DNA from: Candidatus Parcubacteria bacterium
GTDB lineage: Bacteria; Patescibacteriota; Patescibacteriia; UBA1558; GWA2-36-10
Length of the DNA stretch: 64,000 nucleotides
Reading direction: 5' to 3'
Assembly: GCA_018669975.1 (NCBI GenBank)
Contig: JABHSK010000002.1
Location: 5,535 to 69,534 of the forward strand
In this document: positions 1 through 18,800 of the stretch, piece after piece
How the letters are laid out: the number at the start of each line of letters is the position of its first letter
Numbering within the stretch: position 1 is the first letter of the stretch
The notes under the pieces: model-generated
What the model saw: the letters and a program-made list of their open reading frames with translations, nothing else
Databases searched by the model: none
Told to the model about the DNA's origin: nothing
Position numbers and translations under genes: made by a program

Positions 1-16
1 AATTTGTCCTCCATAT

Positions 17-1504
17 TTAAAACCTTAATTTTTTATTCAAATCTGAAATAGCTGTAAATTCTTCAATGGTCAACACCGACTTATCTTTTGATTTATAGTC
101 TTCTATTAAATTAGCCACTTCCTTACCTTGAATCATGCTCTCTTGGCCAAGTTCCAAATATATTTTATACACCTGGCTATTCCTCCAGGCCTCAATACCC
201 TGCGCTTTTTTAGTAAAAGAATCTTTTTCTAATACATTAATTTTATCCAAAATCTTGTCTACCCTATCCTGTACAACATCGCCAAAACGACGAAAGTTGT
301 CCAAAGTTAAAGCCTCTAATTCTTGCACTGGCCCAGTCAACTCATGCTGCACGGGTGAAGCCTGTGGTACAGATTTCAATGTTGGCTCTGGCGTAGGTTT
401 TGGTTTGGTAACTACATCAGAAATTTGCTTTTTATCAAGTGCGCTGGGTCTAAAAACCTTGGGTAAGGGCTCTAAACTTTTTTCAACTACCTCTGGTATA
501 TTTTTTGGTTTAACTTCAGGCTTTGGTTTAACTTCAGGCTTTGGTTTAACTTCAGGCTTTGGTTTAACTTCAGGCTTTGGTTTAACTTCAGGCTTTGGTT
601 TAACTTGTTTTTCCACCTGAACAATCCCCTTCTTCTTTTCTCCTTCCTTGATTAACTCCACTTCTTTAACAGTCTCTATTTTTTCTTCAATTTTTGGTTG
701 CTTTGGAAGAACAATAGGCTCTATTTCAACCTTTGTTTTTACCTGTTTAGATGCTATGGGAGGTTGCTGACTAGGCACGGGCTCAAAGGATGACTTCATT
801 TCCTTAAGAGCTTTTTTTACCTCTTCTTGCGCAGAAGCATCTTCTCCGTCCCCATCTTCAAGCTCTATTCTGCCTCCTGGCTCTACAATTGTATCAACCA
901 TCGCAGCTTGCCTGACCACTAAACCACCCACTGAAAATAGTTTATTTTTTATACCTTTAACGATAGATAAAATATTATCGACAATATCCTTATCTAAGGA
1001 TTTGTTATCCACAGATACCTTAATATACAGCAACTCTCTAACTACTATAGCGCTTTTTCGATCACGAAAAAAATCATAAAGAATGTCAGTAAATTTCTGT
1101 CTATTCACCTCATTAAGCTTCAGATCCTGCTTTTCTATAATCTTATTGACGATTTTATCAATGCTATATTTTTTACTATCGTCTTTTGGTAATACCTTAG
1201 CCAGCTCGTCAAGCTGTTGCTTGTCGTCAGGATGAAAGACTAATTCAGCTGTACTATCAGCCCTACCACCAACATACTCAATTGGCGCAAAACTATCATC
1301 CAATGGCGCTGTATTTATACTCGGAGTGTTAACAACACGTTGTTTATCCTCCTCTTTTTTCGGTATCGGAGTCAATGTAGAACCATCACCTTTTTTCGGC
1401 CCGCTTTGTTTCAAAGGATGCAATTTTCCACCTTGATCTTTTATCAACAAATTATCAGCCCAATTATCTTTAGTTAATATACTTTTATCGTTAGATGTCA
1501 CCAT
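17..1504 (-). CDS. hypothetical Lys/Pro-rich protein with (KPKPEV)x7 repeat block
   Basis: 495-aa ORF; an 18-bp DNA tandem repeat encodes KPKPEV x7; no catalytic motif recognised; start at window edge looks complete. Confidence 0.5.
   Translation of the reverse strand: MVTSNDKSILTKDNWADNLLIKDQGGKLHPLKQSGPKKGDGSTLTPIPKKEEDKQRVVNTPSINTAPLDDSFAPIEYVGGRADSTAELVFHPDDKQQLDELAKVLPKDDSKKYSIDKIVNKIIEKQDLKLNEVNRQKFTDILYDFFRDRKSAIVVRELLYIKVSVDNKSLDKDIVDNILSIVKGIKNKLFSVGGLVVRQAAMVDTIVEPGGRIELEDGDGEDASAQEEVKKALKEMKSSFEPVPSQQPPIASKQVKTKVEIEPIVLPKQPKIEEKIETVKEVELIKEGEKKKGIVQVEKQVKPKPEVKPKPEVKPKPEVKPKPEVKPKPEVKPKNIPEVVEKSLEPLPKVFRPSALDKKQISDVVTKPKPTPEPTLKSVPQASPVQHELTGPVQELEALTLDNFRRFGDVVQDRVDKILDKINVLEKDSFTKKAQGIEAWRNSQVYKIYLELGQESMIQGKEVANLIEDYKSKDKSVLTIEEFTAISDLNKKLRF
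507..606. repeat. 18-bp tandem repeat ggtttaacttcaggcttt x5.5 (in-frame, coding)
   Basis: perfect direct repeats read directly in the sequence; they translate to PEVKPK repeats on the minus strand. Confidence 0.9.
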
Positions 1505-1573
1505 GTTTTTATAGATTTTATATATTATATTATAACATATTTAGTGCGACATAGCCAATGATATTAAGTGATC

Positions 1574-1606
1574 AAAAAACCGCCCCCACTTAGTGGGGGC
1601 GGTTTA
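1574..1606 (-). terminator. rho-independent terminator downstream of efp
   Basis: 11-bp perfect stem accgcccccac / gtgggggcggt with 3-nt loop, flanked by A-run/T-run; T-run follows the hairpin on the minus strand. Confidence 0.7.
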
Positions 1607-1617
1607 AATAAATAAAA

Positions 1618-2175: not shown

Positions 2176-2177
2176 GA

Positions 2178-2396
2178 TTATTTAGATGAAAAAGGCAATA
2201 GAGCCATAAAACGGGCCCTCTTTATAGCCTGAGACAATTTTCTTTGGTGTTTTGAACAGGCTCCACTTCTTCTCTTTGGCACAATTTTACCGTATGAAGA
2301 GGTAAATTTTTGTAATTGTTGCCAACTCTTGTAATCAATGTATGAAATATCATTCACACAAAAATGACAATATTTAGTTATGTGCTTCTTATGCAT
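2178..2396 (-). CDS. rpsR: 30S ribosomal protein S18
   Basis: 72 aa; CHFC...IDYK...KIVPKRRSGACSKHQRKLSQAIKRARFMALLP is the S18 signature; lies within the rpsF-ssb-rpsR operon. Confidence 0.9.
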   Translation of the reverse strand: MHKKHITKYCHFCVNDISYIDYKSWQQLQKFTSSYGKIVPKRRSGACSKHQRKLSQAIKRARFMALLPFSSK

Positions 2397-2419
2397 ATTA
2401 AAATTATTTTATTGGTCTA

Positions 2420-2890
2420 TTAAAATGGAATATCCTCGATACTGATCTCTTCTTCACCACCACCAGAAGATTCCTTCTTTGCTTGTGGTTCTGGCTGAGA
2501 AAAATCATCCTGTTTTTTACTAAAACCTGGTTGATTCTCATAACTAGAGTCGCCGGTAGACCCAGCCCTATCTAGCATAATCATATTTTCAGTGATAATC
2601 TCTGTGCGATATTTCTTAACTCCACTAGGATCATCCCATGATCTGGTTTGCAAACGACCTTCTATATAAACCTTGCTCCCCTTTTTCAAATATTGATTAC
2701 TAATCTCAGCTAAGCGTCGCCAAGCAACGATATTGTGAAACTCAACTTTTTCCTGTTTCTGACCGCTCTGATCTTTCCAAACAAGATTGGTAGCCACAGA
2801 AAATGAAGTAACATTCTGACCATTGCCTGTAGCACGCATTTCTGGATCACGCACAACATTTCCAATGACCATAGCTTTGTTTAAATTCAT
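2420..2890 (-). CDS. ssb: single-stranded DNA-binding protein
   Basis: OB-fold N-terminal region, Gly/Gln-rich linker, acidic C-terminal tail ending DIPF. Confidence 0.9.
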   Translation of the reverse strand: MNLNKAMVIGNVVRDPEMRATGNGQNVTSFSVATNLVWKDQSGQKQEKVEFHNIVAWRRLAEISNQYLKKGSKVYIEGRLQTRSWDDPSGVKKYRTEIITENMIMLDRAGSTGDSSYENQPGFSKKQDDFSQPEPQAKKESSGGGEEEISIEDIPF

Positions 2891-2914
2891 AGTGTTAATT
2901 TAGTTTTTGAACAA

Positions 2915-3400
2915 TTAATCTATTTTGGGTTCCTGATCTAGCAACTCATCAAGCTTCTTATCGATGTCGTCTAGATCAATTTTGGTAGTTTCTACCTTAG
3001 GGGTAGCTTTTACAGCTTCGTCTGCTTTTTTTGTCTCAGCTGGTGCAGCTTCACCCTTGGTAGCTGGCGCTAACTTACGAGCAGCTTGTTTCTTCTCTTG
3101 CTTGTTAGCAGCTGGATCTTTTTTGATAATCAAATAACGAAGCAAATTGTTATTTAACTTCAATTGAGTTTCAATTCCTTTAAGACCATCCTTGTCTTCT
3201 AGAGAAAACTCCAAAAACACATAAAACCCGTGTTTCTGCTTTTTAATAGGGTAAGCCAGCTTCTTACGGCCAATTGAATAGGCCTCCTTGATGACTTTAG
3301 CACCTACTTTGTCCAAATAGCCCAAGATGTCCTTCTGCACAGCTTGATGCTCTGTTTCAGGTACATTTGCACTAATGATAAAAGATAATTCGTAATTCAT
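2915..3400 (-). CDS. rpsF: 30S ribosomal protein S6 with Lys/Ala-rich C-terminal extension
   Basis: N-terminal 95 aa match S6 (MNYELSFII...HGFYVFLEF); conserved synteny with ssb and rpsR. Confidence 0.9.
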   Translation of the reverse strand: MNYELSFIISANVPETEHQAVQKDILGYLDKVGAKVIKEAYSIGRKKLAYPIKKQKHGFYVFLEFSLEDKDGLKGIETQLKLNNNLLRYLIIKKDPAANKQEKKQAARKLAPATKGEAAPAETKKADEAVKATPKVETTKIDLDDIDKKLDELLDQEPKID

Positions 3401-3414
3401 ATTCTATTTAATTA

Positions 3415-3441
3415 CCTTACCCAACATAATTAGAGGTAAGG
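3415..3441 (-). promoter_or_regulatory. 5' leader hairpin of rpsF sequestering an SD-like GGUAAGG (possible S6:S18 autoregulatory element)
   Basis: ccttacc-13nt-ggtaagg inverted repeat 15-40 nt upstream of the rpsF ATG on the minus strand; the purine-rich arm is positioned like a Shine-Dalgarno. Confidence 0.3.
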
Positions 3442-3582
3442 GCCCTGCTCATTGACAAGGCGTGGTTAATCAAATAATATAGTTTTAAAAACCATATTAG
3501 ACTCTCGATACTCTAACATAAATAATAGACAGAGTCAAGTCAGTGTATTGATTAAAAATCACTTTTAAATTATGATATATCT

Positions 3583-4776
3583 ATGCATAAATACTTATTT
3601 ATACTAGGCCAAGCAAATGACCTAGCCAAAGAAGAAATAACCACTGTCCTGGATGAAGCCCAGGATAAAATTTTGAAAACAGGTACAAATTTTGTAGTAG
3701 CTAGCAGTGGAAAAAATGCCGAACAACTAATGTCCACATTAGGTGGCACAGTTAAGATAGCTGATTTTATCGAAACCATAGATGACCCATCTAAGCTTAC
3801 TGATGAAAAATGGCTTATCTATCTAAAACAATCAATAGCCAAGGCTAATGGCGACAAAATTCACTTTGGTTTTAGTTTATACAATGATTCCAATAGAAAC
3901 TATCGGGCCATCAATAAAACAGCCCTAGCAATAAAAAGACAACTTAAGCAAAAACACAAAGTTCGCCTAGTCAGTAGCAAAGAACCAGTTCTATCCTCTG
4001 TAATAGTCGCTACTAATAAATTACTGGGCAACGAGCTACTCATTGTTAAATATAATAATAAGTGGTTATTGGGAATGACTAGAGCTGTCCAAGATTTTGT
4101 AAAATATGGACAAAGAGATATGAATCGACCTGGACGTGATAGTAAATCTGGCATGTTACCCCCCAAGGTGGCTCAGATGATGATAAATATTGGCAGTATT
4201 AGTCGACAAAAAACAATTTTAGACCCCTTCTGTGGTTCTGGCACTGTTCTACAAGAAGCTATACTGCTTGGTTTCAAAAAAATAAATGGCAGCGACCTAA
4301 GTCCTAGGGCTGTATCAGACTCAAATAAAAATATTACTTGGCTAAAAAAAGAATTCAATCTAGAATCCGAGGTTAATATTAAACAATCTGATATTAAAAA
4401 TTTAAGTAAAGATTTTGCGCCTAATTCCATTGACTTGATAGTAACTGAACCATTCATGGGTGATGCCCGTATAATAAAAAATAAAAGGAGTATCAATCAG
4501 CTAACTGACATTAAACAAGAATTACAATACCTTTATTTGGAATCTTTTGCTCAATTTAAAAAAATATTAAAACCCGGCGGCAAGATTGTGTTTATTTTTC
4601 CAATCTTCAGAATAAAAGACCAGACTATACCCACTCTAGACAAAAACATTATCCAGCAAATAAATTTTGAATTAATACCACCAAAAATAAAATCTGATCA
4701 ATTATCAGATAATGGCAATATTATATACTCAAGACCCGGCCAAGTAGTTCAAAGGGAGCTTAGTCTTTGGCAATAG
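3583..4776 (+). CDS. THUMP/UPF0020-type RNA (guanine-N2) methyltransferase-like protein
   Basis: SAM motif I ILDPFCGSGTVLQEA, motif IV-like VTEPFMGD, and LPPKVAQMMINIG resembling Trm11/RlmL-type methylases. Confidence 0.6.
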   Translation: MHKYLFILGQANDLAKEEITTVLDEAQDKILKTGTNFVVASSGKNAEQLMSTLGGTVKIADFIETIDDPSKLTDEKWLIYLKQSIAKANGDKIHFGFSLYNDSNRNYRAINKTALAIKRQLKQKHKVRLVSSKEPVLSSVIVATNKLLGNELLIVKYNNKWLLGMTRAVQDFVKYGQRDMNRPGRDSKSGMLPPKVAQMMINIGSISRQKTILDPFCGSGTVLQEAILLGFKKINGSDLSPRAVSDSNKNITWLKKEFNLESEVNIKQSDIKNLSKDFAPNSIDLIVTEPFMGDARIIKNKRSINQLTDIKQELQYLYLESFAQFKKILKPGGKIVFIFPIFRIKDQTIPTLDKNIIQQINFELIPPKIKSDQLSDNGNIIYSRPGQVVQRELSLWQ

Positions 4777-4841
4777 ATCAAAAAAAATAAAAACCCCACT
4801 CGGAGGTCTAGAAAACACTAGAAAAACGGTGGGTTTTTTTG

Positions 4842-6086
4842 CTATCTAACAACTTCAGATATCCAAGCCAATTGTTTGTCAGCCATGTGAATTTCTCGCC
4901 ACTTGAACTTACCAGTATTCTGATCCAAATAAACTACCTGACCAGAACCTGGAATCAGGTTACTCAAATAAAAAGCTAACACGGTAACATCATCTTTAAT
5001 ATGCATTTTGTCTACCAATATCATCTCAAAAAACAAACGTCTAGCCAACAAATGATCAGTGTTTTTATCTAGCCAGTCTCCCAAGTCATGACTATATCTA
5101 AGGTTAATAAAACGTTTTAGTATATTCCTAAATCTACTATCCTCTTTTAATAAAGCTTCTAGAGCCTTTTTTTCTATCAAAACTTTCAAACAACTACTTA
5201 CCTTATCTTTGTCTTGTAAGCCAATAGCATTCCATAGAATATCCCTGACCTTTGACAAATTATTATTTGCTTCTGACATTATAAAGTCTGCTGGCAACAT
5301 TTTGACCTCTATATCATTGAGTTGCTTATGAAACTTTTTCAAAAGCTTGTCTATATCAACTTTGGTTGTGGGCTTTTCTTCCGAAAACTCAGACACCCTC
5401 AACACCCCAGCTACCAACTCAAACTGTATCTTTATATTATCATCATAGGCTGTGATAAAGTGCCGTAAAGAATCAAGCTCATTTTTACTTAGCTTGGCTA
5501 TATTCGGAGCTTTAGTGAGGTATTTTGAGCGTTGTAGAGCATTATGATAGGCAGCCCCTGAAAAATGTACATAGTCTTTAATCCAATTATCTACCGTCGG
5601 CGCTGTCGTCCTTCCTTCTGGATTAACAATCTTTCTAGACGTCAAACGTAGATCTTTAAAATTGTTATATTTTTTAAGCATCTGCTTGACTGTACCTGCC
5701 TCAAACTCTGGAAAAACTGTCCTTTGCAAAGCTGCTCGCTTTAATCTTTTTAGTCTCGGTACTTTACCACCCAAACGCAAAATCAAACGATCTACATTTT
5801 CTAAATATTCCTGCAGTGGCCATAATATTTCATAGGCAATATCTAGGGTAAGCTTCCTTAAATCACATCGACCTGCCCCTTCCATTTTTTCCAATTTCTT
5901 GGGAAAATCTAAAACAGATATTTTTTTTAAAAATGCCTTGTGCTCTAATTCTAAAATATAATCCAGCTGAACCCTATTAAGAAAAAATTTATTGGATATC
6001 TTAATATTATTTAAGGGAATATCTTCACCATAAATAACATCTTTTACCTCCTCGGGTAATTTGTTTAATGCTGCTGGATTAATCAT
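4842..6086 (-). CDS. hypothetical cytoplasmic protein, last gene of the giant-protein operon
   Basis: 414-aa ORF with no TM segments and no recognised motifs; separated by 36 bp from the upstream membrane-protein gene on the same strand. Confidence 0.5.
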   Translation of the reverse strand: MINPAALNKLPEEVKDVIYGEDIPLNNIKISNKFFLNRVQLDYILELEHKAFLKKISVLDFPKKLEKMEGAGRCDLRKLTLDIAYEILWPLQEYLENVDRLILRLGGKVPRLKRLKRAALQRTVFPEFEAGTVKQMLKKYNNFKDLRLTSRKIVNPEGRTTAPTVDNWIKDYVHFSGAAYHNALQRSKYLTKAPNIAKLSKNELDSLRHFITAYDDNIKIQFELVAGVLRVSEFSEEKPTTKVDIDKLLKKFHKQLNDIEVKMLPADFIMSEANNNLSKVRDILWNAIGLQDKDKVSSCLKVLIEKKALEALLKEDSRFRNILKRFINLRYSHDLGDWLDKNTDHLLARRLFFEMILVDKMHIKDDVTVLAFYLSNLIPGSGQVVYLDQNTGKFKWREIHMADKQLAWISEVVR

Positions 6087-6122
6087 TTATATAAAATAAT
6101 AAACAAAAATAATTAAACATCC

Positions 6123-8813
6123 CTATATTCCACCACCGCCATCAAAGTCATCATCTGCATCAGGAGCAGCACCTGCATCAGGAGCAGCACCTGCACCAGG
6201 AGCAGCACCTGCACCATAACTATTCTCAGCCAATGAGTGACGCATTCTCTCAGTTAGTATATCAGCATCATCCGCTAGTCTATCTAACTGCTCTTTTGGT
6301 AATTGGAGTAACTCTTCTAGCTTAAGATTGCTAACAAACTCATTAAAGGCCTCATCATCTAAAACTGGCCTACCATTTCCATCGACCTGCATATCACCAG
6401 CTGGAGTTACCTCTGCAAAAGCTAAATGGGCATTCTTCATGTTTCCTCGAGCCAGTCTAGTCCTAGCTTCCGCTTGCCTCGCTCTAAATTGATCATTGTT
6501 CTCAGCGCCTGTTTGATTAGGAATATTGTTTATCTCCTGACTAAAATAAGCATTAAGAGCCTCAGGACCCCCGGCATAGGGACTAGTAGCGTCGCTAGCC
6601 ATCATAACCTCTGCATTACCATGCCTTATCTGGCCTGACACCATAACCTCCATCTTCTCTCTATCATTTGTCTTTGACATAAATTCTTTCCTCTGACCAG
6701 CATTCATTAATCCAGACATACTTCTAAGGAAAGTAGAGTCTGCGCCCATTCTAGCTACTTGTTTTCCTGAGATATCCCGACTAGCTGCCGCGGCAAAACT
6801 ATCTCTAAGACTTGTCTGCAATCTATCTCTAGCAGCATCTGCAGCCTGTGCATTCCCTGAGCTAGCCATCTCCCTTCTATGTTCTGCTTCACCTAAATCA
6901 TGACCAATATTACTAAAATGATTCTCGGTATCCGCAGCTCTGCCAAACTGAGAAATAGTAAGCGTCCTTTTATATGCTTCTGAATCTGTATTGATTTGTG
7001 CATTACCATTTTGATCTCTCACTGGGTTACCAGCTGCATCTGTAGTAAACATACTATCAGTTGGTCGAAATTCCCTTAAAGCATTTATCAATGAATTTCT
7101 GTCCTCACTTTCCATACCCTCCATAGCCTTGGCCCTAGTATCATCATCTTGAGCTAATATAGTAGTCATCACTGCTTGATGGTCAGTATTACCAGCATCA
7201 ATACCATCAAAATTCATATTCTTTAAGGTGGCTACTAAACCACTGTCTGCTATATTACGATCCATGGTCTCTTCAGTGTTAACTGAAGCAGCACGCTTCT
7301 GCAAACTTGTACGAGCATCTGCATCACCATATGTTTCAAATAAATCATCCATATTGCCAGCATCTAGAGTTTGACCACCAACAGTCACACTTGTTTCACC
7401 GCGAGCCTGAGCTGCTTTAGCAGCGTGATATTGAGCCTCATCACCACCCTTAGTAGCCCAATATGCTGCCTGATCGGTTACACCTTCTGCACGTGTACCC
7501 TCATACTCAGCTCTGCGCTTCCTGCTACCCTGATCTGCTGCCACTCTACGCATCCCAGCTCTAGTTACCAAGCCGCTAACTCTACCTGCTATACCTCCAC
7601 GGTCTTGCATTTGTTGGCCAGCTTCTGTCATGCTACGACCCGCCATGCCTCGCAATCTACTGAGTTGCCCCTTGATCATTCCCTCACCACTTCTGCCCTG
7701 ATACAAAGTTTTAGCACCAGCTGCCGCACCAGCCTTGACTAGACCACCAGCCTTGCGACCTACCTTGCCAGGAGCTGATTTTATATTAGAAGCCATATTA
7801 CCGGCTATACCAGCACCAGCCGCGCCTGATTTAGCAGTCATCTGCAATCCAGCCACTAAAATAGCTATACCAATAACAAAATTTAATACACTACTTGGTG
7901 CAGCTGCCGCACTAACATCATAAACTGGATGATTATCATCATCTTCACTGTCCCCGGGAACCTCACTGAAACTATCATTTATATTTCCATTTCCCGTAAT
8001 ACTAAAAGCTAGCCATAAAAAGAAAGCTAAACTGGGGCCAGCAATCAAATTCTTAAGCAATTCTTCTGACCATTCATTAAAATATTTTTCAGTTTTAGGA
8101 AAAGTAAAAGCTAAAAAAGCTAAAGGAGATAAAACCAGTAACACCCATAGAGTCACAATCCTCATAGCTAACATGGCCAAAAAGGCTAACACGACCATGA
8201 CTGTTATTAACAACATAATAGCACCCAAGAAATAGGCTACTACCACATTACTTTCAAGGCTTGGACCTGTAGAGTCGCTACCTTTTTGTAAAATATTCTG
8301 CAAACCCAAGGCAGTCATCACATTACCAGCTGCAATATTCTTAATTACAGAGACAAAGGTCAACATAATTACCTGAGAAAAATCAATGGCAATACCAACG
8401 ATAGTTTTACTAAAATTAATCAATACTGCTACTATTAACAATTTTTTCAACAATTGACGGTAACCGTAAGACTGAATTTTTAAAATAGTAGCTAAAGCAA
8501 TCACCAAGAGTATAAGGATGAAAAACATATTACTCAGATCTCGCAAAGCTTCCCAACCAGCTGAAACACCTGCTTCTTGAGTAAAGTTATTATATTCAGC
8601 CACAATAGGCAAAAGCAACAACTCCAATTTTAAAACTTGTGACAGTGGCCAAATAAACAAGCCATAGATAATATTGGCTAATAAATCATCTACAACTGAC
8701 TTTAAACCACCACCAGCATACGCAATACGTGGGGTCGCCAAACTAACAGCCGTAGCCAAGGTTACAAATAATACCCAATATTTACTTTTGATTTTTCTAG
8801 ATAAGATATTCAT
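6123..8813 (-). CDS. polytopic membrane protein, TrbL/VirB6-like N-terminal domain plus ~560-aa Ala/Gly/Arg/Asp-rich C-terminal domain
   Basis: signal peptide (..RIAYAGGG), about 8 predicted TM helices in the first 330 aa with a Gly/Ala-rich segment after the last TM; hydrophilic low-complexity tail ending in (GAGAAPx)3 DDDFDGGGGI; 6-bp gap to the giant gene. Confidence 0.45.
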   Translation of the reverse strand: MNILSRKIKSKYWVLFVTLATAVSLATPRIAYAGGGLKSVVDDLLANIIYGLFIWPLSQVLKLELLLLPIVAEYNNFTQEAGVSAGWEALRDLSNMFFILILLVIALATILKIQSYGYRQLLKKLLIVAVLINFSKTIVGIAIDFSQVIMLTFVSVIKNIAAGNVMTALGLQNILQKGSDSTGPSLESNVVVAYFLGAIMLLITVMVVLAFLAMLAMRIVTLWVLLVLSPLAFLAFTFPKTEKYFNEWSEELLKNLIAGPSLAFFLWLAFSITGNGNINDSFSEVPGDSEDDDNHPVYDVSAAAAPSSVLNFVIGIAILVAGLQMTAKSGAAGAGIAGNMASNIKSAPGKVGRKAGGLVKAGAAAGAKTLYQGRSGEGMIKGQLSRLRGMAGRSMTEAGQQMQDRGGIAGRVSGLVTRAGMRRVAADQGSRKRRAEYEGTRAEGVTDQAAYWATKGGDEAQYHAAKAAQARGETSVTVGGQTLDAGNMDDLFETYGDADARTSLQKRAASVNTEETMDRNIADSGLVATLKNMNFDGIDAGNTDHQAVMTTILAQDDDTRAKAMEGMESEDRNSLINALREFRPTDSMFTTDAAGNPVRDQNGNAQINTDSEAYKRTLTISQFGRAADTENHFSNIGHDLGEAEHRREMASSGNAQAADAARDRLQTSLRDSFAAAASRDISGKQVARMGADSTFLRSMSGLMNAGQRKEFMSKTNDREKMEVMVSGQIRHGNAEVMMASDATSPYAGGPEALNAYFSQEINNIPNQTGAENNDQFRARQAEARTRLARGNMKNAHLAFAEVTPAGDMQVDGNGRPVLDDEAFNEFVSNLKLEELLQLPKEQLDRLADDADILTERMRHSLAENSYGAGAAPGAGAAPDAGAAPDADDDFDGGGGI
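6157..6216. repeat. 18-bp tandem repeat gcatcaggagcagcacct x3.3 (coding, Gly/Ala/Pro-rich C-terminus)
   Basis: direct repeats read in the sequence at the 3' end of CDS 6123..8813. Confidence 0.85.
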
Positions 8814-8819
8814 ATATTT

Positions 8820-11800
8820 TTAATCTTTATGTACTTGTATCCAACCCTCATACTCTTTAATAGTAGAAGTAGTCCAATTGTCAAAAATTTCTATAATAGG
8901 TTTAAAACAAGAGGCATCTGCTACGCTAGGAACAGTGTAGACATTACCGTTTATAGTAGTAGTCGCACCGTCACATGGGAATAATGGATTGTATAAATAT
9001 TGGTTATACAAAACCTTATAACCTTCATGGCAAGCACCTTCAGTACCACCAAAACCTTGCCAGCTTCCCAATATACCTGGCATGTCTGATTCTGGATTAC
9101 AGAGTGGCAAATTATTTTTGTATTTACCATAATAACTACTTGGCACACCGCCATCACCCCAATCCATAACAATATCTCTAACCGGCATATGATCAGGATG
9201 AGCATGATAATAAAATTTAGCGGCTGCAAACAATGAGCTCTCCTGACTAACTATACTACCGCCATTGGAATTATTTATGGTAAAGCCCTCTTCGGGTATT
9301 CCATTTGAATCAATACAAAGTCCATTTCCACAAACTCTAAGAATACGCGGTTTAGAATAGGTATTACCAACCTGTGGTCTAGCAGAGGTGGACATATTAT
9401 GAGTGTCTATATAACTAGCCTGGTTATACAAACCAAGTGAATTAGACGGCATTCTCAATGAGTACATTTGTCTAAATAAGTAAGCAAAACTGTCCATAGT
9501 GTCCCACCAGCGATAAAAAGCACAGCTAGCATTTACACATCTAGCACTTGATTCATTCGTCCAATTACCAATGGGTCCCGGACTCATAAAAATAGCTGTT
9601 CTATCATAGAAATTATTAGTAAAAGGCTCCAATGGTAACATCACTTGAACTTGAAGATCTGTGCCAAATCTTGAAATAGGACTAACCGATGCACCAAAAG
9701 CATAACCTATAGACGTGGTAGCTCTTTCTATGTCTGAATTAGGAATAAACGGTGGAGTAACCGTAGGAGTCAAAATATAGTCATAATGTAATTCTGACCA
9801 CCATGAGTTGACAGTCACTCCTGGCGCATAAATATCATCAGAACTAGCTAAATAAGCTGAACGATCTTGCAAGTACGCCGGTGAAGTACTAGGGCTACCA
9901 TGCCAGAATGTAAACTCTGTATGAGGTAAAGTGTAGTTATAATTTTCTGGCTTTGATGCCCACCAAACATCAGTATTGACTATAGCATTGTCACCCAGAG
10001 GATCTACCTCCATCAATCTATTACAACGTTGGTAACAACCCTTGCCGTTTATATTTGCATTACAATCATCACCAGCTCTAGTTGAACCATACCCAGGAGG
10101 AGTTAATACACCGCCAAAGACATACATATTAAAATCTAGCGGATTACAAACATTGTACGGGAAAGCACCACCAGTGATATGAGCATAGTGATAATTTGGC
10201 ACACAAGCCACTGTAGTAGTAACAGAAGATGGTAATGATAAAAATTGATTCACATTAGTTGAACTATAAGCGCCTGTTCCAGATACACCCTCATCTAAAT
10301 AGTAGTACTCAATAGTAGCATCATACAATCTCTGTAATCGAGCCATAGTAACTCCATAGCTAGCGGCTGGCGCGTTTACAAAATCTTCGGGCTCAAATAA
10401 AGCGCGACTATCAACTCTAGGTCCAGGAGCACTACTATCATTTATATGGTTAACACCATTATTTTTTACAATCACATCCATACCTATTGGCCCAGGCAAT
10501 CCACCTGGCACATCAGTAGCTTCATACCTGGTAAATACATCTTTAAGATAATAATTTGTCAACAAATCCCTCAAAGTAATATCACCCGGGTCATCTAGTG
10601 CATCAGCATTAATCAGAGATCCAGTTGGAATCCTTAATAATAACGTACAATTACCACCCGGGCCACTATCACCACTAGCAGCACAATAATATCTATCTCT
10701 AGGAATTATATAAGGATTAGTAAAAGCACACATTTGTATATAATTTCCATAGGGGTCAGTATAACCAGCAGAATCATAATTATTATATAGACCCTGTGTA
10801 GAATTAATCTTGGTAATTGGATACCACAGATTACAATAGTTTGCTCTAGAATCTATATCTGAAACAATGCCAGAATATTTATCTTGTTCATAACAAATAC
10901 CTGGTAAATTAAGATTAGTCTCAATCTTTGTCATTGGCTCACATCTACCGCCAAGATACAAAAGACGCGAAGCATCTCCATCACAATTCATATGAGCATT
11001 ACATGGTGAGCCAATATAAGGACTAGTCACAAACTCTGAAGAACCATCCTCATGTATTATTTCATAGGCTTCGGCAGCATCAATAGCGCTTGTACCACTA
11101 AGTGTCGATACACAAACACCAGTGTAATAATCCTTGTCTGTTGGATAATAAGCAGTGTAAGTACCGTTTCCATAGGTAATCTTATTGTAAGAATCCTCAC
11201 AACCATCCTCCCAAGCATCACACAAACCATCTGCGTCAATGTCTAAGCAGGTACCGTCAGCTATAACACTCTCACAAATACTAGCATTACCGTAGCCAGG
11301 CCTTCTCTCTCTAATTTCCCTACCTGCAATACTAGTACCTGTATCCTGCGATATGCTCTGCGGAAAAGGAGAATCTGGTACTGCATAGCCCTTGGTAGTT
11401 AACCCTATATAATATGATTGGTTAGTATAATCTGGACTCAACCAACAAATCTCATCTTTACAAATACCAGTATTAATCCACTGGTAATAACCCATATGAC
11501 TAATACCATCTTCTGGGAAAGCCATACAGAATTGTCCGTTAGTAAGAGGTATACCATCAGCAGTATAGTTACTAGTTTCACAACTAGTTGTCGTACTGTG
11601 CACTCTATACATCAATCTTAGATCGATGTCTTCATTATCACCAAAATTATAAACTTCTAAATCTTTGGCTGGCAATAGGTTTGGAGCTGCATAACCAACA
11701 TAGTCTTTATCTGCCCACTGCAAGTGACTATTGTTTCCTGATACTCTATATTGGTAAACGGAAGTTGTCAGTGGGGTACTAGAAGTATAAGTATCCCAAT

Positions 11801-14800
11801 TGCCACACTTGGTGACACTACCTCGTTTATCATATTCAGTACAACTAGAAATATCATCACAGAGCACATCATATTGTTGTGTATCTGGATTAAATTCACT
11901 AGAGGATGACTTACATGCCAACCATTCAGCACATTGCCTACTCTTGTTTACCTTGATAATTGTATTAGCATTACAACCCACGTCACCATTAGCACAAATA
12001 TCTGGGTTAACTGGTTTATCAAAATATACATTCTTATTATAAGTAGTAGAAGCATTGTACAAAGAATCTACGCCTGCGTGTCCTGAACCCCAATTATTAG
12101 TGTCATAGAAAAGCATACAACCACTATTTCTATCCACATCAACACAACTCTTATAATCTATATTATTATTATCAAAATAATGATAATTCTTACATGACAC
12201 ACCGTTTATCCATTCTCCACCGCCAGTCGCATTCATTATTAAAACACACGTCATACCACCCACACCAGCATAGACAGCACCAGTACCGTCAACACAAGCG
12301 ACAGTATCTCCATCTTTAAGTCTTGGATCACAGCCAGGCGGGTCAAAAGGATCTTTAAATGTAGTACATAGGTTAGCTGTCTCTGGACACTCCGCTGCCC
12401 AACGATCTGGCTGGAAATCAACTATGTAATCTAAATACTCAAAATCAGATTGATCAAAATTAAAGTCCCCGTTATCACTACAACCTATCGGATCTATACC
12501 ATCTCCCAATGTATGAGTTTGGAACCAACCAGTAAATGGCACATACTGACCAGAAAGCATCCTAACATGATTATTTTCACGAAAGGAACAAGTCTTATTA
12601 CCTGGATCCTTAAAGTAATAAGTACCTTTAGACGAACCATAGGTTTCACAATCTAATGCTTCAGATACACATAGAGTATTCTCATATTGATCTGGATCAT
12701 TAAATTTATAAACCGTACTAAAGCCAGTAATCGCGTTGGCATTAGCCTTGTCTACTTTTGGTAGCCCAAGCTCCGAACAACCCTTAAACTGTTGCGGACA
12801 ATATTTGGATCTATCTGGTACCAAATAATCTAAACTATCTCTTGACACAGTAATCTCTGCTGGTTCTGGAGGCACTTCTAGATTAAAGGTTTCTTCAAAA
12901 GGATTGGTAGAATTATGTGTATCAATCACCGCCATACAACCTATCTTGTCTTCTCCACAAAGTTTTTCAAATGATTTTAAGTTATATAATGAGCCGTTCC
13001 TATCCCGATAAGCTTGGCAACCTAAATGAAAGGCAGAATAAGGACTATCGCAGGAAGCCGGCGTGCTCCAGGTATCTTTCCTTACATAAATATGATCTGT
13101 CACTTCACGCAAGGTGACGTTGTCAAAATAGACACTATCAACTCCATTGAATGTAAATGTTAATCCAGTCGTGGTGAAATCAAAATTTAAAATATCCTCT
13201 TCTGTAATAGCCACTGTATAAGGATGCCAATCACCACCTTGTATATTATTAAAGCTAGCAATCAGCGTGCTCGTGGCCATACTACCAATAGTAACGTCTA
13301 GTGTTGTTAAATTACTATTATTTCGCAGCCACCATGACAACTCATATTCTCTATTTCCTTGTAGCTGATTGGATAAATCACGATCAACACTTGTGTTTAC
13401 AGCATTGAGTTGCAACTTCATTGAATGTCCTTCATTCATAACAGATTCATTGGACATATCCAACGATCCCCAAAATGTTACCCAAGGATCATAGGTGCCT
13501 TCTTCAAAAGTGTCAGAAAGTATAGTTCTTAGATTATTTCCAGTATTACCCTTGTAGGCACGACAACCACCACTTTGTTCTCCACACTCTTCACTTAAAC
13601 TAGGAATAGCACTATACAATGCACCAGTTAAAGTACGGCGATAAGTATGACAATCATCACTAGCAAATATAACTCTGTCCTGCAGGCGCCAATAAGAATC
13701 TCCGTTGGTGTCAAAAAACTCTCTACAATTCGGATTATTTTCTGGATCATCTAATATAGTAGCTGTTTCTGGACCACAAGCAGCCATAGGGAAATTTCCA
13801 TTTGTAGCAGGTGCATCATCAATACATAAAATTCCGCCCCGTTGTACATTAGTACAAGGTGGTTGACCTTTACCAGCTATTGTCCGATTACTCTCTAAAG
13901 TATGCCAAGTTTTAATCTGATAACCAGATACGTCTTGACCTTCCCAAGTATAATAAGTGATTCCTAAATCATCAGCCACACATTGACGCAAATATGAAAA
14001 ATATTCTTTACCTTCACCGCCATCAGCCACCTCATCTAGGTTAGTGAACTCTTCGCAGCCAGCTTCTGAAGCTGGGCAAGTCTCGGCTGTATCAGGTATA
14101 AAATTATAATAATTAACTGCGTAATCTCCCTCGATATTATCAAAAATTGTGGTTTGTTCCGCAAAAGAAGCATAACCAACACACTCCTGAGGGCATAGAT
14201 CATCCTGTGAAATCACTGCTGGCACCATTGGTCCACCAGCTACTGGTCTATATGCCTGGCAACCAACCTCATCTTCACTACACATGATTCTCTCGCCACC
14301 CATATAGATAGTACTACCAACTCCATACTCGGAGTATGGCGTAGCACTCATACCTTCTTGGCTAACTATTTCTAATTTAATATTATCAAACCACATAGCT
14401 GAAGGAGCAGCACCATTTGGATTAACACCACCATAAGACATTACATCTATTCGCCCTCCACTAGTATTTTCATCTGTCATAAACAGACAACCAGCCCTTA
14501 ACCAACTAAAATCACTCGGTGGCACAAATCTCAAATCCGCATTATTTGGATGACCACTACCACCAAGTAAACAAGTACCAGTGCTTGTTGCTGGTCTTGC
14601 ATTATTTGTCGCACCGTTACAGTCGCCAGTCATATCACATAATTGTACAGCTACACGTGCTCCATAATCAGCTGGCGCCACATATTGAGCAGCATCAGCT
14701 GATATAATATAATATGTATTTGGCAGTAACTCCACATTCATCTGCAATACTTCTTCTGCATAAGGCTCTGTATTCCAATTACTTGCTCCCCAAGTATAAC

Positions 14801-16973
14801 CATTTGCTACTTTATTATTGTCATAATCAGCAGTAAAACCATTGCTTGGAGTCCCATTACTTGTTCTTGTCCAACCGTCTGGAGTATTAGTAGCAGTACC
14901 ATCATCATGAAAATTATTAAAACTACCATTTGGTACCAAGTTTACTCCTAGGTCAGGAACCATAACTATATACTCTGAACAATCAGCATAAGTTGAATCA
15001 CACTCAGAAGTATTTAAAAATAAATCATCTTCATTTAAAGTGAATAGGGTTGGATCCAGTGTCATATCCTCTTCCATAAACCAATCACCAGCTGCATCTC
15101 TAGTCTGTGAATACCGCTTACAGCCAGACTCCTCAGCTGTACAATATTCCAAAGTGCCCTCTATATAGCCCTTTGTACCTAAATCAGCGTTGTCAAAAAC
15201 TAAACAACCTGAATAAATGTCCCCATCGTCACACATGTCACCGTTGAAGCGCCAAATATTTTCACTTCTGGTGCAGTATCCATATTGTCCTTCTAGACAA
15301 TTACCACTTTCATCTTCTCGTAGACATGTCTGTGGATCAGCACAATATTCTTGACGACTGCTTCCATCTGAAGATTCTAAAGCTGGTCCATAAACCATAG
15401 CATTACATCTAGTTGGTGGTGCTCTTAGCACCCAATCTGGATCAACTAAATGATAAAATGGATTGTGATGATTATCATAAGTTGGATCAATTCCATATTC
15501 ACAAGATCCACCATCTTCAAAACAATTAATAACCTCTTCTACAGTCACCGCCTTATCAGCTACACGCTGAGCAGCTAACTCCATACCAACTGGAAAAATA
15601 TTAGCTTTCCTTAATTTAACTAAATCTCTATAACACAGGCCTGATTTGAAACAATCTTTATTTTCATTATCTGGATTATTCGGTCCTATGATTGGTAAAT
15701 CACCATCCAAGAGTCCATCATCAATGGCACTCCTAAGAGTTTCTTGATTAGAAACGGCCAACATTAAATTGGTGTCGATGACACAATTATCTAATGCCCG
15801 ATAATCTTTTTGTGCTGGACAAATAGCAAAATCTTGCAAAAACGTCCAATCCTCTACTGGTGTTAACTCTGTCGCTTTTAAATCTGAAAATACATTACCT
15901 ACACTCCATAATTCGTCTATATCTACACAACCACCCAAAGCACATGCTACCGTTGGTTTGATACCTGGATTTTTCTCTAGTTCACTTGCTGGAGGATTGA
16001 TAATATTCATACCCTCTTCAAACGCCCGCTTCATCAACTTTGAAGACAAAGTAGATACAAACATATTACCAGCTTCAGCTAAAATAGCTGACAAAGTACC
16101 TCCTTCGGCATTTTCAAAAAAAGCGAACTGATCCCCAGCAATAGCCGCATCCCATTGAGCCTCGTTCATGTTCATAATATCTGTACAGCCAGTCTTTACG
16201 TCTCCTGAGATAGTTGTCTTTGAGTCCAAATAACCCTTACACATCTCAAGAAACATTGCTTTATGTGCTGCAGCCATAGCACCAGTTTTACTCACCTCTT
16301 CCCTTATTCTATCTCTTTGACCTAAATAGGTTTGTTCATATCCAAATAAAGCTATAAAAGCGTCATCAAAATCAGCTCTTTTGTAGTTTGGTGTAATAGT
16401 CAGACTATCTTTAACATAGTTAGCCCAGTTTCTACCATACAATGAATCACTAAAATTACTCCAATTCTCTTTAATTGCTGAAAAGTCACACTTCGGTGCT
16501 GGCGGCTCTTCAGAATCTAAAATATCTAGAGTTAGGCTAAGTTGCAAATCTAAACTTGGGTTACATAAATCTATGCCTAAGCTAGCCAAGGTCTCTCCAT
16601 TTGACCCCGCAGACTGCATTAGGCCACCTATAAACTCACCCTTTGCTGCATCTGCTGCTCTATGTGTAGCACTTTCTCTTGGTTTAGTATCATAGAGTGA
16701 TTTTTTACCAGAGCCTGACTCTGATATACTAGTAGCTAAATCATAGGCCAGATTATTCATAAACATTCTAGCCGTATCAACTGCCACCTTATGAATCATA
16801 CCCTCCCAAACACCTGCTAATATACCCTGAAGTCTTTCCCAGCCCCATTTTGCTCCATTAACAGTAACTACGCCAGGGGAAAAAGCCTGGACAGGTTTTG
16901 GTTTTGCCAACAAGGGTCCGACAACCATCAATGACAGTACAATCACGATTATCGCTCTTTTGTAATTGTTCAT
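8820..16973 (-). CDS. giant secreted Cys-rich protein (2717 aa) with CBM4/9-like and PKD-like segments
   Basis: N-terminal signal peptide (IIVIVLSLMVVGPLLAKPKPVQAFS); about 100 Cys; Asn/Gly/Thr/Tyr/Asp-rich; NGSFNNFHDDG...PDGWT and FEEGTYDPW segments resemble CBM_4_9 beta-sandwich starts; MDWGDGGV resembles the PKD WDFGDG motif; uninterrupted 8.15-kb ORF. Confidence 0.8.
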   Translation of the reverse strand: MNNYKRAIIVIVLSLMVVGPLLAKPKPVQAFSPGVVTVNGAKWGWERLQGILAGVWEGMIHKVAVDTARMFMNNLAYDLATSISESGSGKKSLYDTKPRESATHRAADAAKGEFIGGLMQSAGSNGETLASLGIDLCNPSLDLQLSLTLDILDSEEPPAPKCDFSAIKENWSNFSDSLYGRNWANYVKDSLTITPNYKRADFDDAFIALFGYEQTYLGQRDRIREEVSKTGAMAAAHKAMFLEMCKGYLDSKTTISGDVKTGCTDIMNMNEAQWDAAIAGDQFAFFENAEGGTLSAILAEAGNMFVSTLSSKLMKRAFEEGMNIINPPASELEKNPGIKPTVACALGGCVDIDELWSVGNVFSDLKATELTPVEDWTFLQDFAICPAQKDYRALDNCVIDTNLMLAVSNQETLRSAIDDGLLDGDLPIIGPNNPDNENKDCFKSGLCYRDLVKLRKANIFPVGMELAAQRVADKAVTVEEVINCFEDGGSCEYGIDPTYDNHHNPFYHLVDPDWVLRAPPTRCNAMVYGPALESSDGSSRQEYCADPQTCLREDESGNCLEGQYGYCTRSENIWRFNGDMCDDGDIYSGCLVFDNADLGTKGYIEGTLEYCTAEESGCKRYSQTRDAAGDWFMEEDMTLDPTLFTLNEDDLFLNTSECDSTYADCSEYIVMVPDLGVNLVPNGSFNNFHDDGTATNTPDGWTRTSNGTPSNGFTADYDNNKVANGYTWGASNWNTEPYAEEVLQMNVELLPNTYYIISADAAQYVAPADYGARVAVQLCDMTGDCNGATNNARPATSTGTCLLGGSGHPNNADLRFVPPSDFSWLRAGCLFMTDENTSGGRIDVMSYGGVNPNGAAPSAMWFDNIKLEIVSQEGMSATPYSEYGVGSTIYMGGERIMCSEDEVGCQAYRPVAGGPMVPAVISQDDLCPQECVGYASFAEQTTIFDNIEGDYAVNYYNFIPDTAETCPASEAGCEEFTNLDEVADGGEGKEYFSYLRQCVADDLGITYYTWEGQDVSGYQIKTWHTLESNRTIAGKGQPPCTNVQRGGILCIDDAPATNGNFPMAACGPETATILDDPENNPNCREFFDTNGDSYWRLQDRVIFASDDCHTYRRTLTGALYSAIPSLSEECGEQSGGCRAYKGNTGNNLRTILSDTFEEGTYDPWVTFWGSLDMSNESVMNEGHSMKLQLNAVNTSVDRDLSNQLQGNREYELSWWLRNNSNLTTLDVTIGSMATSTLIASFNNIQGGDWHPYTVAITEEDILNFDFTTTGLTFTFNGVDSVYFDNVTLREVTDHIYVRKDTWSTPASCDSPYSAFHLGCQAYRDRNGSLYNLKSFEKLCGEDKIGCMAVIDTHNSTNPFEETFNLEVPPEPAEITVSRDSLDYLVPDRSKYCPQQFKGCSELGLPKVDKANANAITGFSTVYKFNDPDQYENTLCVSEALDCETYGSSKGTYYFKDPGNKTCSFRENNHVRMLSGQYVPFTGWFQTHTLGDGIDPIGCSDNGDFNFDQSDFEYLDYIVDFQPDRWAAECPETANLCTTFKDPFDPPGCDPRLKDGDTVACVDGTGAVYAGVGGMTCVLIMNATGGGEWINGVSCKNYHYFDNNNIDYKSCVDVDRNSGCMLFYDTNNWGSGHAGVDSLYNASTTYNKNVYFDKPVNPDICANGDVGCNANTIIKVNKSRQCAEWLACKSSSSEFNPDTQQYDVLCDDISSCTEYDKRGSVTKCGNWDTYTSSTPLTTSVYQYRVSGNNSHLQWADKDYVGYAAPNLLPAKDLEVYNFGDNEDIDLRLMYRVHSTTTSCETSNYTADGIPLTNGQFCMAFPEDGISHMGYYQWINTGICKDEICWLSPDYTNQSYYIGLTTKGYAVPDSPFPQSISQDTGTSIAGREIRERRPGYGNASICESVIADGTCLDIDADGLCDAWEDGCEDSYNKITYGNGTYTAYYPTDKDYYTGVCVSTLSGTSAIDAAEAYEIIHEDGSSEFVTSPYIGSPCNAHMNCDGDASRLLYLGGRCEPMTKIETNLNLPGICYEQDKYSGIVSDIDSRANYCNLWYPITKINSTQGLYNNYDSAGYTDPYGNYIQMCAFTNPYIIPRDRYYCAASGDSGPGGNCTLLLRIPTGSLINADALDDPGDITLRDLLTNYYLKDVFTRYEATDVPGGLPGPIGMDVIVKNNGVNHINDSSAPGPRVDSRALFEPEDFVNAPAASYGVTMARLQRLYDATIEYYYLDEGVSGTGAYSSTNVNQFLSLPSSVTTTVACVPNYHYAHITGGAFPYNVCNPLDFNMYVFGGVLTPPGYGSTRAGDDCNANINGKGCYQRCNRLMEVDPLGDNAIVNTDVWWASKPENYNYTLPHTEFTFWHGSPSTSPAYLQDRSAYLASSDDIYAPGVTVNSWWSELHYDYILTPTVTPPFIPNSDIERATTSIGYAFGASVSPISRFGTDLQVQVMLPLEPFTNNFYDRTAIFMSPGPIGNWTNESSARCVNASCAFYRWWDTMDSFAYLFRQMYSLRMPSNSLGLYNQASYIDTHNMSTSARPQVGNTYSKPRILRVCGNGLCIDSNGIPEEGFTINNSNGGSIVSQESSLFAAAKFYYHAHPDHMPVRDIVMDWGDGGVPSSYYGKYKNNLPLCNPESDMPGILGSWQGFGGTEGACHEGYKVLYNQYLYNPLFPCDGATTTINGNVYTVPSVADASCFKPIIEIFDNWTTSTIKEYEGWIQVHKD

Positions 16974-17013
16974 ATTTTTATTTTCAATAATTTATTATGA
17001 TTATTTTATATAA

Positions 17014-17829
17014 TTACTCCTCTGTACTCTGATTATCTTCTTCGCTGATACCCAATAATTGAAAGCCTATTGATATCAACTCCTGATCCGTCATTTGATT
17101 AATTCTCTCTTTGTCAGCACCAGGCTGTGCCAATAAAAAATTTCTGACTTCTTCTGAGCTGACTTCTTCTGATTGCTCTGAAGCAGCCATGTTTTCAGAA
17201 ACAATTTTAAAAAGCATCAACAAATCTTCGTCTGACAGTTTATTTACTTCCTCTTGAGGCATGCCACTCTCTATCAAAATCCTTCTAAAATCTGTGGCGA
17301 TGGCACCTTGCAAGGTCAAATCCTCATCCAATTTAACATCTTCTATAACTTCTACAAGTCTAGTTTTTGGAGTAATTAAAGCCAATAAACTACAATCCTC
17401 TCCTTCTGGACATAGTGGATCAGCGCCAGAACTAACTTCATCAAAATCTGATACGCCATCGCTATCTGTATCATCTATAAAGATACTAGTGTAATACTGG
17501 TACATCTCCTGATAATCAGTCAGACCATCTTGATCTGTATCTCTTTCTTGTAATTCAGCAATAGTCACTTGAGCATCCCCCTGTTCTTGTAATTGCTCCT
17601 CCAGCCAATCGGGCCTCTCATAGGCTACTGGACCAGCTATATTTCCATACAAATACCAAAAAGAAAAAGCGACAATTGCCAATCCTAATATAATAAATAA
17701 TAAAACATGCTTCTTGTCACTTTGATTTTCTTGTAGAGATCTATTGATATCCTCTGCTGAGTATCCTTCTAGCTCGTCGGACAATCCATCCTCTGTGAAC
17801 TCATCTAGTTTGTGTAACTTTTTTTTCAT
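17014..17829 (-). CDS. membrane-anchored protein with TSP3-like calcium-binding repeats (first gene of operon)
   Basis: single TM (LLFIILGLAIVAFSFWYLY) after a charged N-terminus; DTDQDGLTDYQE and DTDSDGVSDFDE..GADPLCP match the thrombospondin type 3 DxDxDGxxDxxD(NCP) pattern. Confidence 0.6.
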   Translation of the reverse strand: MKKKLHKLDEFTEDGLSDELEGYSAEDINRSLQENQSDKKHVLLFIILGLAIVAFSFWYLYGNIAGPVAYERPDWLEEQLQEQGDAQVTIAELQERDTDQDGLTDYQEMYQYYTSIFIDDTDSDGVSDFDEVSSGADPLCPEGEDCSLLALITPKTRLVEVIEDVKLDEDLTLQGAIATDFRRILIESGMPQEEVNKLSDEDLLMLFKIVSENMAASEQSEEVSSEEVRNFLLAQPGADKERINQMTDQELISIGFQLLGISEEDNQSTEE

Positions 17830-17854
17830 TAATAGAGTCGATTAAATTATGTTT

Positions 17855-17863
17855 ATTATAACA
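17855..17863 (-). promoter_or_regulatory. extended -10 element (TGTTATAAT) for the 17829->4842 operon
   Basis: minus-strand TGnTATAAT about 30 nt upstream of the start codon at 17829; no good -35. Confidence 0.3.
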
Positions 17864-18794: not shown

Positions 18795-18800
18795 TTTGAT

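Follow-up and report, generated by a model that had tools for sequence, protein, structure and literature searches.

Type IV secretion systems (T4SS) of Patescibacteria comprise VirB4, TrsD, PrgI and VirB6. According to Quinonero-Coronel et al. 2025 (PMC12102498), they are related to MPF-FATA systems, mostly lack a relaxase and are often located near ksgA or dnaA. In S. epibionticum, the sole cultured model, the system encoded by SEML1_0006-0019 is essential and virB6 is one of the essential genes, as stated by Wang et al. 2023 (PMC10633639). Among T4SS, it is the first for which such a need for the survival of the bearer has been reported. Effector export and the uptake of DNA or nutrients are named as candidate functions (PMC10633639, PMC11665869, PMC12857230). 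Homologues of the type IV coupling protein (T4CP) are present elsewhere in many patescibacterial genomes, and the T4CP of S. epibionticum is dispensable (PMC12102498). The DNA analysed here, below called the window, comprises 64,000 nucleotides of contig JABHSK010000002.1 from a Candidatus Parcubacteria bacterium. It contains a complete open reading frame (ORF) for a protein of 896 aa (6123..8813, minus strand). This protein is probably the VirB6 of a chromosomal, relaxase-less, MPF-FATA-related Patescibacteria T4SS, and it falls into the 'extended VirB6' class with a tail that most likely lies in the cytoplasm.

The locus resembles the catalogued Patescibacteria systems in several respects (PMC12102498, PMC10633639). 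It is chromosomal, lies beside ksgA and has a VirB4/TrsD/PrgI cluster without a relaxase or coupling-protein gene. Judged from gene content, VirB4, a TrsD-like protein, PrgI and VirB6 are all encoded near ksgA in a patescibacterial host. As in the census, VirB6 is recognised mainly with proteobacterial-type VirB6 profiles (PMC12102498). Unlike in the catalogued systems, an S6-SSB-S18-EFP block separates VirB6 from VirB4 in this lineage. Both studies catalogue VirB6 by matches to hidden Markov models (HMMs). C-terminal extensions of ~420-940 residues, a folded tail or an upstream module with a giant protein and a TSP3 protein are not described in their searched text, which reports zero PrgB-like adhesins. 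In the literature searched, large surface proteins of Patescibacteria are discussed just generically as adhesins.

'Extended VirB6' proteins are defined by at least five hydrophobic helices and a large central or C-proximal hydrophilic domain (PMC12857230). In the 896-aa protein, 7-8 hydrophobic helices are indicated by hydropathy, the last of which ends near residue ~330, and the structural model described below also contains at least five long hydrophobic α-helices. This agrees with the about eight transmembrane helices of the original prediction. A hydrophilic region of 566 residues follows, so the protein has the architecture of this class. RvhB6/VirB6-1 to VirB6-4 of Rickettsiales and F-plasmid TraG likewise combine a hydrophobic domain with a C-proximal hydrophilic one (PMC2653234, PMC7648143), and 896 aa lies within the range of 700-1150 aa of extended VirB6 proteins. 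The VirB6 homologues of MPF-FA systems have 700-900 aa, with Tn916 Orf15 shown in a review figure (PMC12857230), and TcpH of C. perfringens is a VirB6 homologue, too (PMC6137059). There are also differences. No sequence or fold similarity between the tail and those of other extended VirB6 proteins was detected. The extensions of MPF-FA proteins are called 'unstructured' in the review (PMC12857230), whereas the tail found here is predicted to be folded. Finally, MPF-FATA, to which the VirB4 of Patescibacteria is related, has prototype VirB6 proteins of only ~300 aa, and the protein here is extended. R388 TrwI (7o3v, 8rt9, 8rtd) shares with it a bundle of long hydrophobic helices and VirB3 and VirB4 as partners. 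TrwI and Agrobacterium tumefaciens VirB6 (295-342 aa) are tail-less and have ~15% identity to it. Both function together with VirB5, VirB2 and an outer-membrane core complex; in the monoderm cluster, none of these was found.

A hydrophobic helical domain of the VirB6/TrbL type makes up the N-terminal ~330 residues. It begins with a segment resembling a Sec-type signal peptide (residues 1-33; 8715..8813, minus strand), as had been proposed: a basic n-region (KIKSK) and a hydrophobic core (13-31) precede a putative cleavage site between AYA and G, whose Ala33 is invariant in the VirB6 family alignment. The hydrophobic helical bundle itself (residues 34-330; 7824..8714, minus strand) is supported by homologues, AlphaFold2 (AF2) and Foldseek. 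A homologue search yielded 349 proteins of 730-1390 aa, essentially all from Patescibacteria/Parcubacteria metagenome bins. Among the 120 matches listed, N-domain identity is 43-81%, and W87, R91, N95, N133, R218, W223, P230, P239, W248, G259, P260 and W267 are among the invariant residues. The only Pfam family matched by the 896-aa protein is PF04610 (TrbL/VirB6; residues 118-274; 7992..8462, minus strand; E = 2e-4, below the cut-off). Of 22 diverse N-domains scanned one at a time, 10 reached PF04610 with E-values of 0.01 or less (the best being 4e-8), and none of the 22 matched another Pfam family. Many relatives carry PF04610 or PF19590 (TrbL_3) in a precomputed table. A full-length family profile returned only low-complexity artefacts from the PDB (Huntingtin polyQ, Mediator 15), which were discarded.

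The fold points in the same direction. An AF2 model built from 81 homologues (mean predicted local distance difference test, pLDDT, 85; model numbering is protein numbering minus 1) contains long helices at 36-71, 80-109, 117-167, 183-234, 241-274 and 305-327 with pLDDT mostly above 85. In a Foldseek search against the PDB, the only specific matches were the TrwI/VirB6 chains 7o3v_F, 8rt9_F and 8rtd_L (probability 1.00, target-normalised TM-score 0.38-0.48, ~285-300 aligned columns), i.e. the model has the fold of the solved TrwI/VirB6. Using the A. tumefaciens (A. fabrum C58) VirB6 sequence from NC_003065, hhalign placed the family-invariant P230...W248 on P179...W197, a weak alignment over 29 columns. 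Judd et al. 2005 reportedly identified W197 as the essential tryptophan of A. tumefaciens VirB6. An invariant tryptophan in a conserved region between a transmembrane segment and the cytoplasm has been called essential for VirB6 (PMC2653234).

The third line of evidence is the gene neighbourhood. Pfam detects no VirB4, VirD4, VirB11, relaxase or T4CP within the 64-kb window. An identical copy of the 896-aa protein occurs on eight contigs, which stem from at least four samples. The longest of them, L088, is 100% identical to window positions 1-18813 save for one 72-bp repeat indel and extends beyond the left window edge, where T4SS genes continue (L088:18728-22420). The window itself ends within prgI (VirB3-like): only its first 14 nt are included (1..14, minus strand; ATG at 14-12). 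In L088, PrgI (PF12666, 40 bits, cut-off 27) is followed by a 226-aa TrsD-like protein with a precomputed TraC-like match (PF26593), a 639-aa VirB4-class ATPase (P-loop_TraG 98 bits, AAA_10, DUF87) and a 184-aa protein. PrgI, the TraC-like protein and VirB4 are encoded ~6-9 kb downstream of VirB6. The VirB4 gene begins ~1.1 kb past window position 1. This means, the window lacks VirB4 because its edge cuts the cluster.

The complete gene order reads ksgA, a 271-aa TSP3 membrane protein, a 2717-aa giant protein, VirB6, a 414-aa protein, a methyltransferase on the other strand, S6-SSB-S18-EFP, a ~470-495-aa protein, PrgI, a TrsD-like protein, VirB4 and a protein of ~185 aa. Relatives with 29-67% identity have the same order; in other lineages, the cluster is contiguous and the S6-SSB-S18-EFP ribosomal-gene block is absent. 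For the synteny counts, tblastn was run on 80 species-representative genomes (at least 551 contain a homologue), and only loci with enough flank were considered. Of the reference loci, 41/49 have VirB4 downstream of VirB6 and 44/49 have PrgI there, while TrsD and the ~470-aa protein are each present downstream in 43/49. The offset of VirB4 is bimodal, with ~6-7 kb and ~9-10.6 kb. Thus, VirB6 is encoded together with VirB3 and VirB4 in L088 as well as in most of the reference loci. A homologue of the giant protein is located upstream of VirB6 in 39 of 52 loci. Named genomes with a homologue belong to Parcubacteria, Paceibacterota, Komeilibacteria, Nomurabacteria, Falkowbacteria, Uhrbacteria and Magasanikbacteria. 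A Patescibacteria-type VirB6 is also present at loci L012, L013, L015 and many others in metagenome-assembled genomes (MAGs) titled 'uncultured Gammaproteobacteria bacterium', which are binchicken/SRP co-assemblies, and in one further MAG titled 'Planctomycetota'. These titles look like placeholder or wrong taxonomy, not like an occurrence outside Patescibacteria.

After the last hydrophobic helix, the Gly/Ala-rich segment noticed earlier is present. It is also rich in lysine and comprises a predicted basic amphipathic helix and a flexible linker (residues 331-372; 7698..7823, minus strand). The segment has a net charge of +6 and no acidic residue, and its basic character is kept in 81/81 homologues; pLDDT falls below 50 at ~349-373. 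Residues 373-865 (6219..7697, minus strand) follow, which the original prediction had regarded as part of a low-complexity tail. This view did not hold. SEG masks only 7.5% of these residues. Their entropy in 40-residue windows amounts to 3.61 bits and so falls into the range of 3.57-3.79 bits obtained for ordinary globular proteins encoded in the window. Two stretches alone are of low complexity, 348-367 and 866-894. The structural model does not suggest disorder either, as residues ~378-862 reach pLDDT values of 88-98 in the full-length model and only the linker and the last 24 residues remain below 50. Residues ~373-865 are thus predicted with high confidence to be a folded all-alpha domain: the model is mostly α-helical with three small β-hairpins, and a tail-only model (predicted TM-score 0.67) has the same secondary structure. 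The first ~70 tail residues are basic, and the core has a net charge of -24.

The composition of the tail is indeed distinct (A 15.7, G 10.9, D 8.2, R 8.0, M 4.5%). GC content rises from 0.362 to 0.454 in the tail, but the rise is confined to codon positions 1 and 2, and GC at position 3 is about equal in the tail and the rest of the gene (0.292 and 0.296). Therefore, the rise reflects amino-acid content and not different codon usage or a foreign origin; the previous mention of GC-richer codons needs correction in this respect, and horizontal acquisition of the tail was rejected for the same reason. Across the family, the tail is 415-942 aa long (median 533). In the closest pair it is 59% identical compared to 80% for the N-domain, and in the next group of relatives ~25%; BLAST detects it in 16 of the 120 matches listed. 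The tail thus diverges at a much higher rate than the N-domain. In 14 aligned tails with 21-30% identity, the motifs W/YxGxSGEG, RRQRK, GD..LxKLQxRSAxxN, MNFxG and AHLAF are conserved. Outside fusions with VirB6, the tail domain was not found, and its distribution is limited to a narrow clade. Against the PDB, Foldseek returned only generic ARM/HEAT-like noise for the tail (TM-score <= 0.22, probability <= 0.51), and a tail profile had one insignificant match (AVR3a4, E = 0.005). Three similar motifs consisting of a β-hairpin and a subsequent helix lie at ~470-500 (VTVGGQTLDAGNMDDLFETY), 587-612 (VRDQNGNAQINTDSEAYKRT) and 799-823 (MQVDGNGRPVLDDEAFNEFV). They hint at an ancient internal duplication, which is not claimed here (hhalign probability 21%, E = 1e-3).

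Two other views of the protein had been put forward. One regards it as a T4SS remnant repurposed with the giant protein: a lone VirB6-like protein of a degenerate system would have lost its ATPases and would now be the giant protein's partner for export or anchoring. The window without VirB4, VirD4 and VirB11 and the tight linkage to the giant gene speak for it. The absence of these genes within the window is correct, but it is owed to the position of the window edge and does not indicate a missing T4SS. From window position 14 outward, PrgI, a TrsD-like protein and VirB4 are encoded in the same genome, as part of a cluster that is conserved in hundreds of patescibacterial genomes. In 41/49 related genomes, VirB4 is found no farther than ~10.6 kb away, and wherever the ribosomal-gene insertion is missing, the genes of the cluster are contiguous. 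The remnant is thus refuted, provided that VirB4 is active, and is the least probable reading of all; of the proposed connection to the giant protein, the conserved synteny persists. According to the second view, the protein belongs to a new family; it would then be a membrane transporter with superficial likeness to VirB6 and an intrinsically disordered, low-complexity tail. A number of results weigh in its favour and against an assignment to VirB6. The Pfam score of the protein (21.6 bits) is below the cut-off of 25.9, and NCBIfam has no matches for VirB6, the 414-aa, the 495-aa or the giant protein. The sequence links to solved VirB6 structures are marginal: phmmer reaches TrwI at E = 0.23 and loses it with residues 1-380 as query, and an HMM of the N-domain family does not recover TrwI from the PDB. 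In addition, E-values of the Foldseek matches are just 0.06-0.09, and the hhalign comparison with the single A. tumefaciens sequence has E = 0.14 and a probability of 0.4%. However, single family members reach PF04610 at E-values down to 4e-8 with nothing else matched, the structure search finds VirB6 only, the neighbours are T4SS genes and the tail is confidently predicted to be folded. No better match to another transporter family was found in these searches, and both Patescibacteria VirB6 homologues and 'extended VirB6' proteins have already been published (PMC12102498, PMC12857230). A new family is therefore very improbable. The assignment to VirB6 rests on the convergence of family-level Pfam matches, fold and gene context.

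The location of the tail leaves more room for debate. Averaged over the 81 homologues, the net charge is +5.8, +7.5 and +12.3 for the first 40, 60 and 100 residues beyond the last hydrophobic helix, and it is positive in 81/81. The preceding loop 275-308 has a mean charge of -3.0 and is net positive in 0/81, and loop 112-124 has a mean charge of +3.0 and is positive in 81/81. According to the positive-inside rule, the tail would therefore be located in the cytoplasm, attached to a flexible Gly/Ala/Lys linker, and this topology appears rather likely. It agrees with the canonical VirB6 C-terminus, which was found experimentally to be cytoplasmic in Agrobacterium, Brucella and H. pylori (PMC7648143), and with the P...W alignment, which gives the same order of helix, loop and helix in front of this C-terminus. 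Alternatively, the C-terminal domain might be extracytoplasmic. Five copies would then crown the VirB6 stalk on the monoderm surface in the place of VirB5 or an adhesin and contact the host cell together with the giant CBM-bearing and the TSP3 proteins. This arrangement has precedents, since the C-termini of Anaplasma VirB6-3 and VirB6-4 are extracytoplasmic and accessible to trypsin on intact cells and in F and SXT TraG, the C-terminal domains work outside the cytoplasm (PMC7648143). In R388, most of VirB6 is on the periplasmic side and just two of its helices are truly membrane-embedded, so that topologies derived from hydropathy can mislead (PMC9259494). Only 6 bp separate VirB6 from the giant surface protein, whose upstream position is conserved in the majority of loci counted above, the tail diverges fast as expected of surfaces that interact with a host, and it contains 3.6% lysine compared to 10.0% in cytoplasmic proteins of this genome. 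A test of the overall tail composition against cytoplasmic and secreted proteins of the genome was uninformative (log-likelihood ratio 0.006) and lends no support to a cytoplasmic tail either. On the other hand, a basic stretch after the last helix and an acidic loop before it are the opposite of what export would require, the tail has zero Cys, and no adhesin or carbohydrate-binding domains were found in it with Pfam and NCBIfam. Hence, a surface tail is considered unlikely, though far less so than a remnant or a new family.

Homology to TrwI/VirB6 of R388 and to VirB6 of A. tumefaciens suggests that the N-domain oligomerises at the cytoplasmic membrane, as a pentamer in the case of R388, forms the base of the translocation channel and contacts VirB3 and the VirB4 ATPase. 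If the predicted topology is correct, the tail of ~500 residues would hang into the cytoplasm on its linker. Speculatively, it could provide a platform for docking around the VirB4/TrsD ATPases, to which substrates or the two soluble proteins of 414 aa and ~470 aa are recruited; a coupling protein is not encoded in the cluster. A more daring proposal sees in the tail a folded domain that is specific to Patescibacteria, has not been described before and lends VirB6 an additional function in a T4SS that is essential and non-conjugative. We regard this as doubtful in either of its versions. In one, the tail would be a cytoplasmic collar for substrate reception and ATPase docking that replaces the coupling protein, with participation of the 414-aa and ~470-aa proteins. 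In the other, an extracellular cap and the putatively co-transcribed giant CBM-bearing protein would form a host-contact conduit for uptake by the epibiont.

In the literature searched, no description was found of this tail as a folded orphan domain, of extended VirB6 proteins throughout an MPF-FATA-related T4SS family or of a conserved TSP3/giant-protein module upstream of VirB6. The role of the extended-VirB6 domain is listed among the open questions in a review (PMC12857230). The present analysis leaves the classification of the gene as it is and adds detail to the inventory of components of a machine that is poorly understood. Three handles are provided. The first is a clade whose VirB6 extension is predicted to be a well-folded, all-alpha orphan domain tethered by a basic, flexible linker. 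The second is the conserved module in which VirB6 is joined by the giant surface protein, the membrane protein with TSP3 repeats and two soluble proteins, and the third is a tail topology that is amenable to testing.

VirB6 ends with an acidic peptide rich in Gly, Ala, Pro and Asp (residues 866-896; 6126..6218, minus strand; net charge -6), which is lineage-specific and predicted to be disordered; the last 24 residues of the AF2 model are below pLDDT 50. It contains the terminal 18-bp repeats reported before. Tandem Repeats Finder (TRF) detected 3.3 copies with 97% matches at 6155..6213 (minus strand), encoding GAGAAPG/GAGAAPD/AGAAPD. Relatives with 67% identity lack the repeat and end in other Gly/Asp/Ala peptides, and the next group ends with ...KHGIDLT. 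The repeat may be a lineage-specific, disordered acidic appendage. The 3' tandem repeats of Anaplasma virB6-4 offer a parallel; by comparison, the array here is tiny (3 x 18 bp) and showed no variation among four contigs. The expected variation in repeat number was not observed: the repeat is identical in four independent contigs, which is weak evidence for invariance as a look-up by exact protein favours identical alleles, and two exact-pattern metagenome scans yielded no repeat-number variants. A perfect 18-bp tandem repeat is present in the neighbouring 495-aa ORF of the T4SS cluster (504-606; TRF 5.7 copies, 100% matches), where it encodes a run of seven KPKPEV units. The L088 copy of this gene is shorter by 72 bp (4 units) and encodes 471 aa; contig L089 has no indel as far as it reaches (window position 534). 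Therefore, the difference in copy number concerns the 495-aa gene and not the VirB6 repeat, and it might be a strain-level polymorphism or an assembly collapse.

The giant surface protein (2717 aa; 8820..16973, minus strand) has an N-terminal signal or anchor and a gap of 6 bp to VirB6. A single CBM_4_9 domain was assigned (residues 1151-1257), and the rest is without annotation. The protein qualifies as a candidate partner of the T4SS in host contact and is absent from the published census list. PDB sequence searches with this protein and the 414-aa protein were empty. Upstream, a single-pass membrane protein of 271 aa with acidic, Ca-binding TSP3-type repeats (17014..17829, minus strand) is the head of the conserved module in every annotated relative. 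The soluble 414-aa protein (4842..6086, minus strand) without family match is encoded 36 bp after VirB6, and every annotated relative has a gene for 411-461 aa directly after VirB6. A terminator-like hairpin followed by a T-run was found in a consensus scan downstream of this gene (4791..4809, minus strand). The gaps of 6 and 36 bp and this hairpin weakly suggest that the genes for the giant protein, VirB6 and the 414-aa protein are co-transcribed in a unit ending at 4809-4791; the number of terminator-like sites in the window corresponds to the shuffled expectation of the scan. Directly before prgI, a soluble Lys-rich protein of 495 aa is encoded (17..1504, minus strand), whose homologues were counted above as the ~470-aa protein. 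The ksgA gene (RrnaAD in Pfam) is located at 17961-18794. The window has a GC content of ~36% and a compact set of housekeeping genes.

Farther away, ~8 kb upstream of the T4SS module, a protein with two LysM domains and a Peptidase_M23 domain is encoded (24754-26139, plus strand), which could be a cell-wall hydrolase of the T4SS. In the Patescibacteria T4SS paper, VirB1-like homologues with M23/LysM domains are mentioned (PMC12102498). A second protein with TSP3 repeats (559 aa; PF18884, E = 6e-10) is encoded at 26197-27876 on the minus strand, so this genome segment would code for at least two surface proteins with calcium-binding repeats. The ORF for leucyl-tRNA synthetase (944 aa; 21798-24632, minus strand) contains a NUDIX hydrolase domain (PF00293, E = 5e-13) at residues 383-490, right after the editing domain (219-375), which is an unusual insertion or fusion.

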